From Candidatus Woesearchaeota archaeon (GTDB lineage Archaea; Nanobdellota; Nanobdellia; Woesearchaeales; UBA525): a DNA stretch of 40,807 bases. Below are positions 146-35,234 of the stretch, in pieces. Made by a program: the position numbers and the translations under genes. The notes below the pieces were generated by a model. That model searched no databases. It saw nothing but the letters and a program-made list of their open reading frames with translations, and was not told where the DNA came from. Position 1 is the stretch's first letter. The number at the start of each line of letters is the position of its first letter. The stretch lies in assembly GCA_018221245.1 (NCBI GenBank), contig JAAOYH010000033.1, forward strand, positions 1 to 40,807, written 5' to 3'.

Positions 146-1294
146 ATGAGCACGAAGGCAGCAAAGGAATCTAATGATAAATTCCTACAAAATATCGCGG
201 CTATGGAAGAGGAGAACCAGCTTCTCAGACAGTCAGTTGAGCAGCTTCGTTCAGAGATAGACAGGTACAGAAATCCTGCGCTATTGGTTGCCGAACTCAT
301 CGACTTCACGGAAGACGATAGGGGCAAGAAAGCAATCATCCGCGTCCCAAACGGGAACAAGTTCCTAGTAGACATATCTTCTGATGCTGAGAATCTGAAG
401 CCCGGCAGCTCTATTGTCGTTGAGCAGAAGAATCTCACAGTCATTGATTCCGTGAACGAGGGTACTAAGTTTAACGTTGAGCAGTTCGTCATCATGAAAA
501 AACCAGATACGTGCTGGGATGATATTGGCGGCCTAGACGACCAGATTCTGGAGATCCAAGAAGTCATTGAGCTTCCTCTGAAGAAGCCTGAGCTATTCAA
601 GAAGGTCGGCATCCAGCCTCCAAAAGGCATCCTACTCTACGGCCCACCTGGCACGGGCAAGACGCTCATGGCCAAGGCCGTCGCTAGAAGCACGAACAGC
701 ACGTTCATAGAGGTTGTTGGTAGCGAGCTGGTTCAGAAGTTCATCGGAGAGGGTGCCAAGTTGGTGAAAGAGATTTTTGAGCTTGCACGTGAGAAGGCAC
801 CTGCTATCGTGTTCATAGATGAGATAGATTCTCTGGCTGCGAAGAGGATTGAGCTGGGAACATCTGGTGAGCGAGAGGTCCAGAGAACCTTCATGCAGTT
901 CCTTGCTGAGATTGACGGCTTCAACAACCTAGGGAATGTCAAGATTATTGGCGCCACTAACAGACGCGACATCTTGGACCCTGCAATCATCAGACCTGGG
1001 CGTTTGGACAGGCTTATTGAGGTTCCAACCCCTGATATCGAAGGCACCAGGAAGATATTCAGCATCCATACTCAGAACATGAAAATCTCCAAACTCGTCA
1101 AGAAAGAGAAGATTATGAAGCTCATAGAGGGTTATTCTGGCGCCGAGATCAAGGCTGTCTGCACTGAGGCTGGCTATTTCGCGATTAGAGAGAACCGGAC
1201 GACGATAAAGGAAAATGATTTCTTGGAAGCGATTAAGAAAGTGCAGCGTGAAGAGCTCATGGAAGGCCGTGACTACATGCAGATGTTTGGTTAA
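146..1294 (+). CDS. pan: Proteasome-activating nucleotidase (AAA+ ATPase, 26S Rpt-like)
   Basis: 382 aa. It has an N-terminal coiled coil (EENQLLRQSVEQLRSEIDRYR), an OB region, Walker A GPPGTGKT, Walker B IVFIDEID and second region of homology ATNRRDILDPAIIRPGRLDR. Confidence 0.95.
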   Translation: MSTKAAKESNDKFLQNIAAMEEENQLLRQSVEQLRSEIDRYRNPALLVAELIDFTEDDRGKKAIIRVPNGNKFLVDISSDAENLKPGSSIVVEQKNLTVIDSVNEGTKFNVEQFVIMKKPDTCWDDIGGLDDQILEIQEVIELPLKKPELFKKVGIQPPKGILLYGPPGTGKTLMAKAVARSTNSTFIEVVGSELVQKFIGEGAKLVKEIFELAREKAPAIVFIDEIDSLAAKRIELGTSGEREVQRTFMQFLAEIDGFNNLGNVKIIGATNRRDILDPAIIRPGRLDRLIEVPTPDIEGTRKIFSIHTQNMKISKLVKKEKIMKLIEGYSGAEIKAVCTEAGYFAIRENRTTIKENDFLEAIKKVQREELMEGRDYMQMFG

Positions 1295-30597: not shown

Positions 30598-30620
30598 AGC
30601 TCAAATCCGGCCAAGCGGCA

Positions 30621-30630
30621 TATATAAATA
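30621..30630. promoter_or_regulatory. Single shared TATA element between divergent gene A and pelota
   Basis: The tatataaata motif is centred 28-29 nt from both ATG 30597 (minus) and ATG 30654 (plus). The intergenic region is only 56 nt. Confidence 0.5.
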
Positions 30631-30653: not shown

Positions 30654-31691
30654 ATGAAGATTCTGCAAAGGGATTGGAAGCAGGGTCGCGTCAAGCTGAT
30701 GCCCGAGACCGGTGACGATCTCTGGTACCTCCACACCCTTATTGACGATAAGGATAGGGTAGAGGGTCAGAGCGAGTACAAGTTCAAGCTCGGTTCGGCA
30801 GACAGCAAGGTACGCGTCGTGAAGAAGCGCGTCTGGGTAGCCATCCAGGTCGCACGTAACGAGTTGGAAGGCTCTTCTCTTAGGATATCCGGCGACGTAG
30901 TGGACGGCTCAGAGGATGTTCCTAGAGGAAGCCATCACGGCCTCGATATCTCTGTAGGTACCGAAATCACACTCGTAAAGGACAGATGGCTGGATTTCCA
31001 CAAGGAGAAGCTTGACGAAGCTGTGAAGAGCGCAAGGCTGAAGACCCTTCTCGTGCTTTTCGACAGGGAGCGCGCATTATTCTTCCTATTGACACCTAGC
31101 GGACACAAGAAGCTCCTGGACATCAAGGGAGACATCCCCAAAAAAGGCCTTGACGAGAAGAAGCAGCACACGTTCTACAATGATATAGTACAGCACCTGG
31201 AATCGCTGGATGCACGCCATAAGAGCAGCCGAATCGTTGCAGCGAGCCCGAGCTTCTGGAACGAGTACCTGAAGAAAGAGCTCAAGGGAGATATATCCAA
31301 GAAAGTCATTTTCACATCCGTGAGCGGAGCAGAAGAGGCAGCCATTCCTGAACTTCTCAAGAGACCTGAGCTCCAGAAGGCTCTAGACGGCGAGCGCTCA
31401 GCCAGGGAAGCCATAATGGTAGAAGAGCTCATGGAAGCGCTCGGCAAGGACAAGCTAATCTATGGGCATGACGATCTCAAGAAAGCCATCTCTGAAGGCA
31501 ACATAACATCACTCACAGTCACAGAGCATGAGATTTCCAAGAGGCGTGACTCGGGAAATTTCGAGGAGCTGGAAGAGCTGATGAAAGCTGCTTCGGATGT
31601 GGGCGCGTCTGTCCATCTTCTGAGCACTGAGCACGCCATGTCTAAGATAGACGGGTTAGGAGGCGCCGTCGGCGTAAAGCGATGGCAATAG
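30654..31691 (+). CDS. pelA: Pelota (Dom34) ribosome-rescue / no-go decay factor
   Basis: 345 aa. The N-terminus is MKILQRDWKQGRVKLMPETGDDLWYLHTLI, and the central and C-terminal domains are eRF1-like. Confidence 0.9.
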   Translation: MKILQRDWKQGRVKLMPETGDDLWYLHTLIDDKDRVEGQSEYKFKLGSADSKVRVVKKRVWVAIQVARNELEGSSLRISGDVVDGSEDVPRGSHHGLDISVGTEITLVKDRWLDFHKEKLDEAVKSARLKTLLVLFDRERALFFLLTPSGHKKLLDIKGDIPKKGLDEKKQHTFYNDIVQHLESLDARHKSSRIVAASPSFWNEYLKKELKGDISKKVIFTSVSGAEEAAIPELLKRPELQKALDGERSAREAIMVEELMEALGKDKLIYGHDDLKKAISEGNITSLTVTEHEISKRRDSGNFEELEELMKAASDVGASVHLLSTEHAMSKIDGLGGAVGVKRWQ

Positions 31692-32530
31692 AGGATCTCG
31701 TCAAGCTTGTGAAGTCCAAAAAGGAGCTTGAGAATCTGGATGACCAGTACGTGCAGGAAAAGTTAGAGAGATATTTCGAAGCACATCCTAAGATCCTGGA
31801 GAAACTGGCAGCCAGCAAGACTATTGAGCAATTCACGCGAAGCAAAGTGTACAAAGAGATGCTGAAACATCTCAGAAAATCTCTAAGGACCGTCTACGGG
31901 GTATTCCAGAAAGGCGACAGATACGGGCTCCTGAATATGATTGCTAAAGAATCTGACCTTGATAGGCAAAAAATGCTGGTTGGGGAACTCTTGCAGACTC
32001 ACACCAGCACAAAAGAACGCCTCGCGGACTACTACATAATCTACAAAGAGCTATCTGAAAGATTGCCCGCCCCTAACATAGTAATAGATCTTGGCTGTGG
32101 ACTCAATCCACTCAGTCATCAGTACATGGAACGTCATGGCTGGTCTCCCAAATGGATAGCAACAGATATCAGCACAGCCGACATGGAGTTCTTGCAGACA
32201 TGTTTCGACACACTTGACATTCCTGGAAAGACTCTGAGACTTGACCTTACAAAGGACTACGAGAAAATAAAAAATCTCAAAGGCGACGTCACGTTCCTGT
32301 TCAAACTATTGGATTCTTTAGAAGAAGTAGAAAGACACATCAGCTACAAGATATTCGACAACATCACTACGCCTTACATCGTAACTAGCTTTCCAACCAG
32401 GTCTCTAGGGGGTAAAAAAACAATAGCAAAAGCATCCAGGACTTGGTTTGAGCGATTATTGAAGCGTAAAAATCTGAAGTGGGAAACCTTCAACACAGAG
32501 AATGAGCTGTTCTATGTGATTAAAACTTGA
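31682..32530 (+). CDS. FmrO/Rmt/ArmA-family 16S rRNA (guanine1405-N7)-methyltransferase homolog
   Basis: The blocks HTSTKERL, VIDLGCGLNPL, FLFKLLDSLEEVER, TSFPTRSLGGKK and ELFYVIK match the conserved blocks of RmtB/ArmA as I remember them. The gene overlaps the pelota stop by 10 nt. Confidence 0.7.
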   Translation: MAIEDLVKLVKSKKELENLDDQYVQEKLERYFEAHPKILEKLAASKTIEQFTRSKVYKEMLKHLRKSLRTVYGVFQKGDRYGLLNMIAKESDLDRQKMLVGELLQTHTSTKERLADYYIIYKELSERLPAPNIVIDLGCGLNPLSHQYMERHGWSPKWIATDISTADMEFLQTCFDTLDIPGKTLRLDLTKDYEKIKNLKGDVTFLFKLLDSLEEVERHISYKIFDNITTPYIVTSFPTRSLGGKKTIAKASRTWFERLLKRKNLKWETFNTENELFYVIKT

Positions 32531-33407
32531 TAAATCCAAATATCAGATGATGATCCGAGCCGTACAATCCTTCCTTATTCCCCACCACTTCTCCCGACGA
32601 GAAAATATCATCCAGACCGAACTTAGAATTCGGAAAAACACTATCAAATCTTAGGTTGAGCTTTTTCAATCCCGATTCCAAATACCTCGAAGAGGTAGGA
32701 TTGAAATCACCCCCAACAATAACAAAGTCATCATTCTGTGCATCCACCATCTTCTCAAGATGTGCATACTGTTGCTTTCTCAACCATGGCGGTGACCAGG
32801 GCTCAAAGTGAATGTTGTAGATTCCAACAGTGCCAGTCTCAGTTCGTAATTTAATATACGGAAGGGAGCGTTGTACTGTAGCTATGTTTCCTAATGGTTT
32901 GTTGTTCATCTCCGGAAGAGGAAAGACCTTCCGGTCCATAGCAGGGTGTCTTGTTGCAGTAAGCATCCCATAACTTCTGTCCTTCATTGAACCCTCTTTT
33001 TTCTCCGTGTGCGTCGGAACATACAGCAGATCATATCCATCCAGGTATTTCTTGAGGCTTTCTTTCTTCCAGAAATCTAATGGGACCTCTTGCAGTAATA
33101 GCACGTCTGGCTTATGGGTCTCAAGATAATTCGAAAGTGCTGAAACTACCGCGTTCTCATTTACTGATCTCCAGATGTTCCAAGAAATTACTTTCACCTG
33201 ATCCGGAAAAAAACCATAGCTTAACGCACCAGGAATGAAGTTCCAATCATCAGGAATGTTGACTGGCAAGTTTTTTCCAGTCATATACCTGTACTGAGCC
33301 TGAGATACACCTGTGATTGCACGCTTTACCGTCGGCAAAGTTGATAGCGAAGCTAACCCTATAGTCCCTGCCAGCACGGCCGCCGCCCATCTCTTTCGCG
33401 AAGACAT
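32520..33407 (-). CDS. Secreted or anchored endonuclease/exonuclease/phosphatase (EEP) family protein
   Basis: N-terminal hydrophobic signal, then WNIW, LLLQEV, GGDFN and the C-terminal GSDHHLI motif. Confidence 0.75.
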   Translation of the reverse strand: MSSRKRWAAAVLAGTIGLASLSTLPTVKRAITGVSQAQYRYMTGKNLPVNIPDDWNFIPGALSYGFFPDQVKVISWNIWRSVNENAVVSALSNYLETHKPDVLLLQEVPLDFWKKESLKKYLDGYDLLYVPTHTEKKEGSMKDRSYGMLTATRHPAMDRKVFPLPEMNNKPLGNIATVQRSLPYIKLRTETGTVGIYNIHFEPWSPPWLRKQQYAHLEKMVDAQNDDFVIVGGDFNPTSSRYLESGLKKLNLRFDSVFPNSKFGLDDIFSSGEVVGNKEGLYGSDHHLIFGFIKF

Positions 33408-33433: not shown

Positions 33434-34243
33434 TTACTTGGCCTTTACTTTCTTCATCTCTTTCCAGGCCAGATCAAAGAGCTGTTCCAGAGCAGATGAA
33501 AAGAACGGCGTATTAATCCAGATGCCCACGTCATAAGTTGGGTGAACATCCTGATCATCCATCACCATGAAGACGACTTCCTTGCCGTCTACAACAACGA
33601 AACGCGCATTAACCTTGGCGTCACGTACTTCAGCGATGCCCTCGAGCTCCTTCGCAGCCTGCTGCAGCTCTTTGGTCATCGGCGCTGCCAGACGAACCTT
33701 TACGCCCCGCTTCGCGACATCCTTGAAAGTCTGCTTTAGACCCTCGATCTTCCTGAGAAGACCAGAACTCGTGCTCACCATAGTGACGCTCTTCTCAGCC
33801 GACCTGATTGTCAGTTCGAGATGGTTGTACAGATTGTGCCGTCCGCGTAGACTGCCTGAAAGGTCAGTCGGATCCACGAGCTCAACCCCTGTCTTGTGCA
33901 GGTTCCTCAGCTCATTGATTACATCCGTCTGCTTCAGATTATCGAGACGCTTCACAGCAACATCTGCATCGTTGCGCACATTTTTCTTGACGCGCTCCAC
34001 CACTTCGTGAGGGTCGACCGCGATGTATTTGATAGGCTTGCCTATCTTCATCACGATAAAGCCCTTCTTCTCGAGCGATTCCAGCACGTCATAACTGCGG
34101 CTGCGGGGGACATTGGCTATGTCACTTAATTCTCCCGCTGTTGACACCCCCCTGGACAACAGCGCGGTCCAAATCTTTACCTCATAAAGATTAAGACCAA
34201 AGTATCTCCTAAGTTTCGACAAAAAGTCGTCCCTAACAACCAT
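33434..34243 (-). CDS. TrmB-family transcriptional regulator
   Basis: wHTH LNLYEVKIWTALLSRGVSTAGELSDIANVPRSRSYDVLESLEKKGFI. The SD gggaggt lies upstream. Confidence 0.8.
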   Translation of the reverse strand: MVVRDDFLSKLRRYFGLNLYEVKIWTALLSRGVSTAGELSDIANVPRSRSYDVLESLEKKGFIVMKIGKPIKYIAVDPHEVVERVKKNVRNDADVAVKRLDNLKQTDVINELRNLHKTGVELVDPTDLSGSLRGRHNLYNHLELTIRSAEKSVTMVSTSSGLLRKIEGLKQTFKDVAKRGVKVRLAAPMTKELQQAAKELEGIAEVRDAKVNARFVVVDGKEVVFMVMDDQDVHPTYDVGIWINTPFFSSALEQLFDLAWKEMKKVKAK

Positions 34244-34409: not shown

Positions 34410-35234
34410 GTGGAGAAACTCGAGCACGATATCGACAAGGTCCTGACGGATAGACCGTTCTCATCAAAGATGGAGATTGGGGATCTGAAACCCATCTCTG
34501 CTGATAACGCCATTAGCTGTGAGGCTTTTTTCGTTAAAACTAAAGATGGCCAGGAGTTCAAGTTGAGGGATTGTGGTACTGTGGAAAGGGCCAAGATGAT
34601 AGAAAAGATAGTGCGAAAAGTGCCAAAATACTTCCCAAAATTCTTGGGGAGAGATGGAGAATACGTCCTTTTCGAGAAACTGAAGAGTTTCAGGGATATC
34701 ACGAACGAAGAGCTGAGAGCGAACACCCGTCAGCTAGGAAGGCTTTGTGCCGAAATCAACAATATCGAGTCAGAAGGACAGAACAGACACATACATTTTT
34801 TCGAGAAACAAATTACAGATTTGTTGGACAGGAGCGAGATCGACAAGAAGTCCCACGATAAAGCAAAGAGACTGCACAAACATCTTCTTTCAAAGATTGA
34901 TGTACAATTAGCTCTTGAAGTATTCGACCTTCATGGCGGGAACATAATGATCAACGACAAGAGCAAGTTGATTTTTGTCGACGATGGAGGGATTGAGCAC
35001 AGAGTCAAGGGAATGGGCTTCGCAAAGCTGTGCAGCGTCATAGATGAGAAAGCCGAGAAAGAGTTCGTGGAAGGGTACAAGGAGATAGAAGACGGATCCC
35101 ATCTCACCGGAGACTATATGAAATTTGTCCATCTCATCGAGGTTGTTCGTTCTCTGGCGTTCAAGACCCGCAGAGGCACGGCCCCACACATCGTTCCCTC
35201 CGAACGCGATAGGTTCTACAAGCTGATAGAATAG
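34410..35234 (+). CDS. Protein-kinase-like fold phosphotransferase (APH/choline-kinase-like)
   Basis: The catalytic-loop-like VFDLHGGNIMIN matches the APH pattern hgDlhpgNil, and it is followed by LIFVDDGG (DFG-equivalent). The start is GTG and uncertain. Confidence 0.5.
   Translation: MEKLEHDIDKVLTDRPFSSKMEIGDLKPISADNAISCEAFFVKTKDGQEFKLRDCGTVERAKMIEKIVRKVPKYFPKFLGRDGEYVLFEKLKSFRDITNEELRANTRQLGRLCAEINNIESEGQNRHIHFFEKQITDLLDRSEIDKKSHDKAKRLHKHLLSKIDVQLALEVFDLHGGNIMINDKSKLIFVDDGGIEHRVKGMGFAKLCSVIDEKAEKEFVEGYKEIEDGSHLTGDYMKFVHLIEVVRSLAFKTRRGTAPHIVPSERDRFYKLIE

Follow-up and report, generated by a model that had tools for sequence, protein, structure and literature searches.

The open reading frame overlapping the 3' end of pelota in a 40,807-nt stretch of a Candidatus Woesearchaeota archaeon contig (JAAOYH010000033.1; the window) encodes a true FmrO/Arm/Rmt-family protein, intact and with both domains of the family. 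From its sequence, the product is predicted to be an intrinsic, non-essential 16S rRNA methyltransferase of the m7G1405 type and not an acquired resistance gene, a reading that we consider probable, though well short of certain. A native ribosome-modification enzyme is the most likely explanation because the gene is old, vertically inherited and located in ribosome-related operons.

The first-pass annotation had assigned the product to this family on conserved blocks of RmtB and ArmA. All five of these motifs are present, in the same order (Table 1), and the Pfam search that it proposed bore out the assignment: PF07091 (FmrO) matched over profile positions 4-255 of 255 with 99.7 bits (E 2.4e-28), the gathering threshold being 27 bits. 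The sequence of Sgm (PDB 3LCU) matched residues 27-281 with an E value of 3.3e-25; given these two E values, the resemblance is therefore far above chance. When a profile built from 30 archaeal homologs was compared with the PDB, Sgm (2.6e-40), RmtF (3e-33) and RmtC (1e-32) were recovered. The NCBIfam equivalog NF000466, "Rmt family 16S rRNA (guanine(1405)-N(7))-methyltransferase", scored 154.1 bits, under its cut-off of 250 bits, and the models specific for RmtA-H scored 50-74 bits against cut-offs of 500-550.

Table 1. Features of the pelota-methyltransferase region; ORF coordinates are from the ORF listing of the window.
Feature	Residues	Nucleotides	Strand	Basis or remark
TATA-like element atatataaata		30620..30630	+	~25-30 nt 5' of pelota ATG; sequence reading
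Pelota (aPelota/Dom34-type ribosome-rescue factor)	345 aa	30654..31691	+	TIGR00111, Pfam eRF1_1/2/3
10-nt overlap of methyltransferase ATG (31682) with pelota 3' end (TAG 31689-31691)		31682..31691	+	sequence
FmrO/Arm/Rmt-family SAM-dependent 16S rRNA (guanine-N7) methyltransferase homolog	282 aa	31682..32530	+	ATG start, single ORF
Helical N-terminal (30S-docking) domain	1-105	31682..31996	+	AF2 model, alignment to RmtC/RmtB/ArmA/Sgm-type proteins
HTSTKERL	107-114	32000-32023	+	first of the named motifs; SAM-binding motif
Motif I, IDLGCGLNPL	135-144	32084-32113	+	SAM-binding loop; D136, G138, G140
LFKLL	206-210		+	third of five named motifs
K208 codon	208	32303..32305	+	RmtC K204 equivalent
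SFPTRSLGGK	236-245	32387-32416	+	fourth of five named motifs
SFPTRSLGGKKTI		32387..32425	+	RmtC K236 plus Loop237-246 equivalent (R240, K245/K246, I248)
ELFYVIK	275-281		+	last of five named motifs
EEP-family gene		32520-33407	-	between methyltransferase and TrmB-family regulator
TrmB-family regulator		33434..34243	-	Pfam TrmB and Regulator_TrmB

In the AF2 model of the protein (pLDDT 91.9), residues 3-104 form helices and precede a seven-stranded alpha/beta domain; this is the layout of the family, with its helical N-terminal 30S-docking domain and C-terminal class I Rossmann fold. A Foldseek search with this model ranked m7G1405 methyltransferases in all of the first 16 places (full-length Sgm, RmtF, RmtC, RmtB and ArmA), after which the matches dropped to generic methyltransferases with TM scores of 0.46 or less. 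The best structural match, Sgm, covered both domains (TM 0.77/0.83).

The SAM-binding and catalytic residues align with those of the family, as the earlier annotation had anticipated, in an alignment of 60 archaeal homologs and 21 bacterial sequences. S109 and R113 correspond to S107/R111 of RmtC and S104/R108 of Sgm, which contact the carboxypropyl group of SAM (PMC10288597, PMC2896518); the former position is Ser in 59 of the 60 archaeal homologs and the latter Arg in all 60. T110, D162 and D188-L189 are likewise retained (Sgm T105, D156 and D182-L183; D162 is RmtC D160), with D136 invariant (60/60) and an Asp or Glu conserved at position 162 over the archaeal homologs. The residues that address the target base are all present. 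K208 is the counterpart of K204 in RmtC, a lysine whose conservation is universal and which touches N7 of the flipped G1405 (PMC10288597); the position is Lys in all 60 archaeal and all 21 bacterial sequences; F75 takes the place of the aromatic stacker Y60 of RmtC (Phe or Tyr in 60/60 archaeal homologs), and R240 supplies a basic residue at the position of RmtC K236. No basic residue aligns with RmtC R211, but there is, as in Sgm, an arginine three positions further on (R218). Compared with the bacterial enzymes, the loop that distorts h44 is short by one residue, and its replacements are conservative (K245/K246, with Lys for RmtC R241, and I248, with Ile for M245).

The N-terminal domain holds a KSKKEL loop motif (residues 12-17), K62, R65, R69, Y72 and F75, as well as an archaeal-specific insertion of ~20 aa in N1 (residues ~36-55 in the alignment). 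When five acquired enzymes were included in a multiple alignment, the SKKY loop motif fell on KSKKEL, which refuted an HMM-PDB alignment that had put RmtC K20/Y21 at residues 36-38. Three of the docking residues nearly universal in the bacterial N1 (K20, Y21, K47, R50 and H54 in RmtC) are retained, as K14 (K20), K62 (K47) and R65 (R50). The other two, H54 and Y21, are essential in RmtC (PMC10288597) and are replaced by R69 and L16. The H54 position is Arg in 44 and His in 10 of the 60 archaeal homologs versus His in 21/21 bacterial sequences, and the Y21 position is Leu in 39, Tyr in 10 and Phe in 7 of the archaeal sequences. Since 10 of the 60 still have His, Arg and His look interchangeable at the H54 position within the archaeal clade.

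The upstream gene is a pelota by TIGR00111 (cut-off 177.65 bits), for which it scored 180.8 bits, and the overlap of 10 nt with the methyltransferase reported for its stop was confirmed, the TAG beginning 7 nt after the ATG. This operon-type junction suggests translational coupling. Overlapping or closely abutting pelota-FmrO junctions recur in related genomes, and the two genes are probably co-transcribed. The TATA-like element 5' of pelota is probably the promoter of this transcription unit; no comparable AT-rich element was found by reading the 80 nt 5' of the methyltransferase ATG. The TrmB-family regulator is conserved beside FmrO in the pelota-linked clade (69-81% identity in related loci); in the genus of the window it is inverted and parted from the methyltransferase by the EEP-family gene. 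Because the GC content (0.43-0.48) is within the local range, there is no sign of recent acquisition. An APH-like kinase had been reported nearby (34410-35234), and we considered it as evidence of a resistance island. It was discarded: PF01636 gave no hit, the only Pfam match was a sub-threshold ABC1 (E 0.039), and a sequence search of the PDB was blank.

The FmrO gene is carried by 228 of the 400 high-quality genomes of the phylum, a Woesearchaeota/Nanoarchaeota-type DPANN lineage (229/401 overall), and by 65 of the 201 genomes of the same order; it was not found in the control model archaea. The gene is dispensable, since ~43% of the high-quality phylum genomes lack it. Among the sampled genomes, presence or absence is uniform within GTDB families. 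In an unrooted gene tree of 60 sampled archaeal sequences and bacterial enzymes, 58 of the archaeal copies form one clade (support 98/98) with all bacterial enzymes outside. GTDB family labels change 12 times on this tree, the minimum possible, compared with a mean of 34 after shuffling; gene tree and GTDB families match perfectly, with no signal of exchange in the sample. A root on the archaeal side is compatible with this unrooted tree.

The FmrO gene usually lies directly 3' of pelota or of the KH (Dim2-like) gene in an aIF1A-RIO-KH ribosome-biogenesis cluster. The pelota-FmrO order was seen in 16/40 loci of the same order and in 32-35 of 80 named loci, and aIF1A-RIO-KH(Dim2/Pno1-like)-FmrO in 10/20 loci of other orders and 14 of the 80 named loci. 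This synteny is kept across GTDB families and orders, and the RIO-KH-TopoVI-B cluster occurs both with and without an inserted FmrO. The aIF1A-RIO-KH cluster was not found in the window's own incomplete assembly and is present in genomes of the same genus. In distribution, tree, neighbours (pelota, aIF1A-RIO-KH, TrmB regulator, TopoVI-B) and composition, the gene does not resemble an acquired resistance gene. Some homologs are fusions of 460-490 aa, whose second domain we considered as a Kam/NpmA-type m1A1408 methyltransferase; this was rejected, the domain having only generic Methyltransf_11/25 matches and no specific PDB relative.

Conservation of the G1405 region had been proposed as a check on the target. 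No 16S rRNA gene was found in the assembly of the window's own MAG (74% complete), so closed genomes of relatives were inspected instead. Their 16S rRNA has G1405-C1496, A1408, A1492/1493 and U1495, and the target sequence GCCCGUCA...AAGUCG is present together with the h45 GGGGAA loop. The region is thus conserved in relatives, but the check does not discriminate, because the target sequence is identical in carriers and non-carriers of FmrO.

Based on these results, we propose that the methyltransferase would be expressed from the pelota promoter, its translation coupled to that of pelota, and that its helical N-terminal domain would dock on the host's own assembled small ribosomal subunit. 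The base equivalent to G1405, at the top of helix 44, would then be flipped into the Rossmann-fold active site, with F75 stacking on it and K208 at N7. The m7G so made would be a modification of the decoding centre. Ribosomes insensitive to 4,6-disubstituted deoxystreptamine aminoglycosides would result as a side effect, which would not be why the gene is present.

The closest known proteins by sequence and structure are Sgm of Micromonospora zionensis (PDB 3LCU/3LCV) and the producer-type Kgm/Grm/FmrO enzymes, which share the two-domain layout. At ~25% identity to these, the archaeal protein differs in the extra ~20 residues of N1, in the Arg that replaces a conserved His and in the Leu found in the first loop where Tyr is conserved; moreover, the producer enzymes are found in antibiotic biosynthetic contexts, whereas the window gene is in an archaeal ribosome-factor operon. 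The plasmid-borne enzymes of Gram-negative pathogens (RmtC, RmtB, RmtD, RmtF and ArmA) have the same Pfam family and fold but are mobile and sporadic. Housekeeping N7-guanine methylation by class I SAM enzymes exists in Bud23/WBSCR22-Trm112 (eukaryotic 18S rRNA m7G1575/1639) and RsmG (bacterial 16S m7G527). These belong to unrelated subfamilies that modify other nucleotides and are functional analogues only of the role proposed here.

A family member in an archaeal chromosome is not as unexpected as the first-pass annotation implied. In 2010 Husain et al. reported NEQ545 of Nanoarchaeum equitans as the "first archaeal ortholog" in the Arm family; its C-terminal motifs are perfectly conserved, and its helical N-terminal domain has diverged (PMC2896518). 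Like the window protein it is a DPANN member of the family; by its published description, it is without one N-terminal helix, unlike the window protein and its clade, which have additional helical residues. A search with the short-type archaeal sequence L029 returned no named N. equitans match. IMG annotation already gives names to many proteins of the archaeal clade. In literature searches on FmrO and archaea, Woesearchaeota 16S methyltransferases, and DPANN and aminoglycosides, we found neither a description of the clade nor an account of the lineage-wide distribution and operon links of archaeal FmrO. Divergent homologs of resistance-type rRNA methyltransferases, the "grm-like" genes, are described in CPR, bacterial hosts that are ultra-small and genome-reduced like that of the window gene; their authors argue that aminoglycoside resistance is not the main origin of these genes, and a tested grm-like protein did not change MICs in E. 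coli (10.64898/2026.07.13.738296).

Several observations count against the main reading: the NF000466 score (154 vs 250), the replacements of H54 and Y21, the ~20-residue excess in N1, the shortened h44-distorting loop with its replacements of R241 and M245, the absence of the gene from ~43% of high-quality phylum genomes and the negative result with the CPR protein. The docking domain could have re-aimed a conserved core at another 16S guanine, at a pre-30S assembly intermediate or at another RNA. The H54 and Y21 replacements, the N1 insertion and the shorter loop all concern parts that position RmtC on h44/h45, which, with the score under the equivalog cut-off, would suit such re-targeting. 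The linked RIO kinase and Dim2/Pno1-like KH proteins act on immature subunits, and a methyltransferase that works ahead of maturation would suit this linkage; Sgm and RmtC, by contrast, require the mature 30S (PMC2896518, PMC10288597). We nevertheless think re-targeting unlikely, if worth serious attention, given that the KK loop motif is kept along with K62, R65, the aromatic F75, K208 and the loop residues of basic or hydrophobic character, the fold matches Sgm across both domains, relatives conserve the G1405 region and the rRNA surface used for docking, and His persists at the H54 position in 10/60 archaeal sequences. With the m7G1405 chemistry unchanged, the gene could instead have been selected as an intrinsic resistance trait, protecting against aminoglycosides from actinomycetes or other producers. 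All characterised members of the family confer resistance (PMC2896518, PMC10288597), the catalytic residues are conserved, and the patchy presence, with 43% of genomes lacking the gene, suits an accessory, environment-dependent trait. On the other hand, presence tracks GTDB family exactly in the sample without sign of exchange, the operon partners are pelota or aIF1A-RIO-KH and not resistance or mobile genes, and neither Pfam nor a sequence search of the PDB identified the supposed kinase nearby as an APH. Furthermore, DPANN archaea are regarded as fermenters, and aminoglycosides depend on a respiratory membrane potential to enter cells, an argument made for CPR (10.64898/2026.07.13.738296) that we extend to them by inference. 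Selection for protection is thus, in our judgement, quite improbable.

A recent transfer of a bacterial resistance gene, or a direct environmental source of clinical ArmA/Rmt, is very hard to reconcile with the data. In its favour, the acquired enzymes are flanked in the unrooted tree by the archaeal clade on one side and the chromosomal producer-type clade on the other, two archaeal sequences on long branches (L028 and L029) join near them, and Husain et al. grouped NEQ545 with the pathogen enzymes (PMC2896518). Long-branch attraction is likely for the two sequences, since no others in the tree have branches as long; the main archaeal clade contains no bacterial sequence (98/98), synteny holds from one GTDB family or order to another, and composition is unremarkable. 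The window protein is 25-30% identical to the acquired enzymes, none of which nests in the archaeal clade. The "evolutionary reservoir" offered earlier as one of three roles is not supported for the clade of the window gene. Among those roles, housekeeping is clearly the best supported, by its lineage-typical, vertical occurrence and its linkage to pelota or aIF1A-RIO-KH(Dim2). A broader history can be sketched, which we regard as speculative and distinctly doubtful: the Arm/Rmt family might have begun, or long served, as a housekeeping enzyme of small-subunit maturation, m7G1405 being native to DPANN, the gene moving from the aIF1A-RIO-Dim2 operon to behind pelota, and the bacterial resistance genes descending by ancient inter-domain transfer.

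To our knowledge, m7G1405 methyltransferases have been described solely from aminoglycoside producers, which they protect against their own product, and from plasmids that confer resistance; we know of no organism with m7G1405 as a normal ribosome modification. Here, an archaeal phylum keeps a diverged branch of the family, catalytically intact by its residues and inherited vertically in operons of ribosome rescue and biogenesis. Its natural Arg and Leu variants at the H54 and Y21 positions would be informative on how the family recognises the 30S subunit. For resistome surveys, "rmt/armA-like" matches from groundwater and sediment may largely represent this archaeal housekeeping-type clade and not the source of clinical genes. 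If activity at G1405 holds true, the FmrO/Arm/Rmt family would have a housekeeping role, and many DPANN archaea would be intrinsically insensitive to 4,6-DOS aminoglycosides.

The methyltransferase ORF that follows pelota is as the first-pass annotation described it, and the five motifs claimed for its product are present in the same order (HTSTKERL, IDLGCGLNPL, LFKLL, SFPTRSLGGK and ELFYVIK). Its assignment to the FmrO family was borne out by an HMM search with PF07091, which matched over the whole model at 99.7 bits (cut-off 27). By sequence, the solved structure nearest to it is that of Sgm, a producer-type m7G1405 methyltransferase (E 3.3e-25, residues 27-281), followed by the acquired enzymes RmtB, ArmA, RmtC and RmtF at about 1e-13; with a profile of 30 archaeal homologs, the Sgm match strengthened to 2.6e-40 and the RmtC match to 1e-32. 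AlphaFold2, run on the alignment of these 30 homologs, gave a confident model (pLDDT 91.9, pTM 0.83). When this predicted fold was compared with the PDB using Foldseek, the best 16 matches were all m7G1405 methyltransferases (Sgm, TM 0.77/0.83); after a drop in score, generic class I methyltransferases followed with TM no higher than 0.46. The NCBI curated Rmt equivalog model gave 154 bits, under its cut-off of 250; judged by this model, the protein belongs to the family but is no certified equivalog. We place much more confidence in family membership than in the functional reading proposed below.

Features of the window around the methyltransferase gene
Feature	Position	Strand	Description
TATA-like element atatataaata	30620-30630		upstream of pelota; sequence inspection
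pelota	30654..31691	+	TIGR00111 180.8 bits (cut-off 177.65); Pfam eRF1 domains 1-3
pelota TAG stop	31689-31691	+	within first codons of the methyltransferase gene
methyltransferase ORF	31682..32530	+	282 aa, ATG start; ORF listing of the window
EEP-family gene	32520-33407	-	endonuclease/exonuclease/phosphatase family (PF03372, 55.9 bits)
TrmB-family regulator	33434-34243	-	neighbour of the methyltransferase, beyond the EEP-family gene
kinase-fold protein	34410-35234	+	at most an unclassified kinase-fold protein

Because of the position of the pelota stop, the two genes overlap by 10 nt, as had been claimed. Inspection of the upstream sequence revealed no element before the methyltransferase start comparable to the TATA-like one that precedes pelota, a pattern that would fit a single transcript for both genes.

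We then consider how the gene is distributed. Its nearest homologs, with identities of up to 60%, were found in MAGs labelled Woesearchaeota, Nanoarchaeota, Nanoarchaeia or Pacearchaeota, as were 80/80 of the best 80 loci among GTDB species representatives. The family is present in 65/201 genomes sampled from the same order and in 229/401 genomes of the phylum (228/400 high-quality), and absent from 14/14 control genomes, four model archaea among them. GTDB families are almost always uniform in having or lacking it (41/42, 13/13 and 11/11 vs 0/10 and 0/8). In a maximum-likelihood tree, 58 of the 60 archaeal sequences, a group delimited after the tree was seen, lie on one side of a branch with an ultrafast bootstrap of 98 and an SH-aLRT of 98; the opposite side takes in all 16 of the chromosomal bacterial homologs together with the five acquired enzymes. 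Mapping the GTDB families of 47 sequences on the tree takes 12 changes, as few as 13 families allow (shuffled mean, 34), and GC across the gene (0.43-0.48) is within the local range. Family-uniform presence, the archaeal clade, minimal label changes and ordinary GC are thus the signature of an old, vertically inherited gene, lost in some lineages, and not of a recently acquired resistance gene; that it is not an acquired resistance gene is, again, held with much higher confidence than its function.

Two Nanoarchaeia sequences, L028 (G242:C15) and L029 (G460:C1), are of a short, bacterial-like N-terminal type with an SRKY/SKKY motif and no insertion. The tree joins them near the acquired enzymes and not to the main archaeal clade; as no other branches in it are as long, this placement is unsafe. 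Genome G242 carries both archaeal types, and L028 has lost the HxSTxER and SFPTRSLGG motifs, which may mean an inactive or neofunctionalised protein. Many MAG records with Woesearchaeota-type loci are titled 'uncultured Methanosarcinales archaeon' (L071, L072, L074, L086 and about 20 more); these titles look like pipeline mislabels, and one belongs to the window's own genus (L072, G421 contig C50).

In most lineages the neighbours of the methyltransferase are ribosome-related. In the window's part of the order, a divergent surface-protein gene is followed by pelota, the methyltransferase and a TrmB-type regulator. The pelota-linked arrangement was found in 16/40 same-order loci and 32/80 named loci, with pelota within 600 nt in 3 more, and the junctions mostly overlap or abut although the methyltransferases are no more than 33-57% identical. 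Other orders of the class have aIF-1A (PF01176), a RIO kinase (PF01163) and a KH protein of the Dim2/Pno1/Krr1 type (PF00013, PF21800, PF22891) ahead of the methyltransferase on the same strand, often with topoisomerase VI subunit B downstream (10/20 loci from other orders; 14/80 named loci). Pelota-linked genomes keep RIO-KH-TopoVI-B with no methyltransferase between KH and TopoVI-B, indicating that, in the course of the phylum's evolution, the gene has been part of two different ribosome-related operons. Late maturation of the small subunit is where RIO kinases and Dim2/Pno1 work, and pelota deals with stalled ribosomes; guilt by association suggests a role for the methyltransferase on the small subunit. 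The RIO-KH(Dim2)-TopoVI-B site lacking FmrO (L158, L159 and L160, compared with L026, L027, L043, L044, L118 and L138) offers a clean presence/absence site for dating the relocation of the gene.

Several other neighbours deserve mention. The TrmB-family regulator keeps 69-81% identity between GTDB families whose pelota proteins share only 35-57% and whose methyltransferases share 33-57%, and it is a neighbour of the gene in L007, L008, L010, L011, L014, L018, L020, L048, L051 and L055 as well; such conservation is unusually strong for a 'sugar regulator', and these archaea may use the protein as a general chromatin or transcription factor. The convergent EEP-family gene, whose 3' end overlaps that of the methyltransferase by 11 nt and whose product has, judged by eye, a hydrophobic N-terminal segment, is inserted between FmrO and TrmB in just two loci, the window and the related L078. 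Reading the kinase-fold protein as an APH-like kinase found no Pfam APH hit and no PDB sequence match; its only match was sub-threshold, to the ABC1 atypical kinases (E 0.039). In the large GTDB family f94 (L052, L056, L061-L064, L130) an RNase D-like 3'-5' exonuclease with an HRDC domain (PF01612 + PF00570) follows the methyltransferase, another RNA-processing link, and the divergent upstream gene is unannotated, without a Pfam hit, its product appearing to have an N-terminal membrane segment. Fused homologs of 460-490 aa (L065:1986-3371 (-) in G457, of the window's GTDB family; P0051, P0068, P0076, P0078, P0082, P0085) bear a C-terminal, generic class I methyltransferase domain (Methyltransf_11/25) for which no specific PDB relative was found. 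A stand-alone copy of this domain (L013:2209-2868 (-)) is convergent to and adjoins an FmrO gene; the pair may form a two-enzyme rRNA modification module.

The first-pass annotation had pointed to the G1405 region of the organism's own 16S rRNA. The assembly (a 0.84-Mb MAG, 74% complete) holds no 16S gene, and the region proved conserved in five closed or near-closed relatives, three with the gene and two without. In these, the top of helix 44 reads GCCCGUCAAA ... UUAAGUCGUC, with G1405-C1496, A1408, A1492, A1493 and U1495 all present, and the h45 loop, GGGGAACCUGCGG, has the E. coli sequence. Hence the substrate exists in the relatives, and it does not differ between carriers and non-carriers. 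All five Woesearchaeales 16S sequences (L021-L025; G016, G097, G085, G025, G158) have A1409-U1491 instead of the usual C1409-G1491, next to the aminoglycoside pocket and irrespective of FmrO presence. Changes to the 1409-1491 pair alter aminoglycoside sensitivity in bacteria.

The structural paper on Sgm (PMC2896518) and the cryo-EM study of RmtC on 30S (PMC10288597) supplied the residue roles, which were located in the window protein through a multiple alignment that comprised 60 archaeal and 21 bacterial sequences.

Catalytic and SAM-binding residues (roles from PMC2896518, PMC10288597)
RmtC / Sgm residue	Role	Window residue	Archaeal homologs
S107 / S104	SAM carboxyl	S109	59/60
R111 / R108	SAM	R113	60/60
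D134 (RmtC)	motif I	D136	60/60
D160 / D156	SAM ribose	D162	D or E throughout 60
D182-L183 (Sgm)	adenine	D188-L189	nearly invariant in 30-sequence alignment
K204 (RmtC)	contacts N7 of G1405	K208	60/60
Y60 (RmtC)	stacks between SAM and G1405	F75	F or Y throughout 60

The SAM-binding and catalytic residues all align, and, judged by residue conservation, the catalytic core is intact. The RmtC docking residues K47 and R50 are matched by K62 and R65. Departures from the bacterial enzymes cluster in the regions responsible for positioning on the 30S subunit. Arg69 replaces His54, which RmtC cannot do without (PMC10288597); this position is His in 21/21 bacterial sequences, and Arg in 44/60 and His in 10/60 archaeal ones. 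Tyr21 is replaced by Leu16, the first helical subdomain has about 20 extra residues (~36-55), and the h44-distorting loop, shorter by one residue, has Lys and Ile at the positions of RmtC Arg241 and Met245. The main rival reading is that this altered docking domain redirects the conserved core to a different site or to a subunit that is still immature, which we regard as unlikely.

On balance, the best-supported reading, which we consider probable, is that of a predicted intrinsic, non-essential 16S rRNA methyltransferase that would act on the organism's own small subunit in the manner of Sgm and RmtC. Among the three roles offered by the first-pass annotation, inheritance and the ribosome-gene operons favour the housekeeping type. 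Protection against aminoglycosides would follow from m7G1405 anyway, but as the primary role it is improbable, given inheritance bound to lineage, operons shared with ribosome genes, the lack of a supported resistance neighbour and fermentative ultra-small cells with probably poor aminoglycoside uptake (an argument from a CPR preprint, 10.64898/2026.07.13.738296). We find no support for this clade as a reservoir of clinical genes: the acquired enzymes fall outside the archaeal clade and share 25-30% identity with this protein.

In 2010 Husain et al. listed NEQ545 of Nanoarchaeum equitans as the first ortholog of the Arm family from an archaeon, and described its catalytic motifs as conserved, its N-terminal domain as diverged and its function as unknown (PMC2896518). 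IMG, too, already names many of these archaeal proteins; archaeal membership of the family is therefore not new in itself. In the searchable literature we found no description of how large the archaeal clade is, of its strictly vertical inheritance, of the operon links to pelota and the aIF1A-RIO-Dim2 cluster, or of the consistent H54->R / Y21->L / N1-insertion signature. Together, these make the question of whether m7G1405 is somewhere a native modification directly testable.
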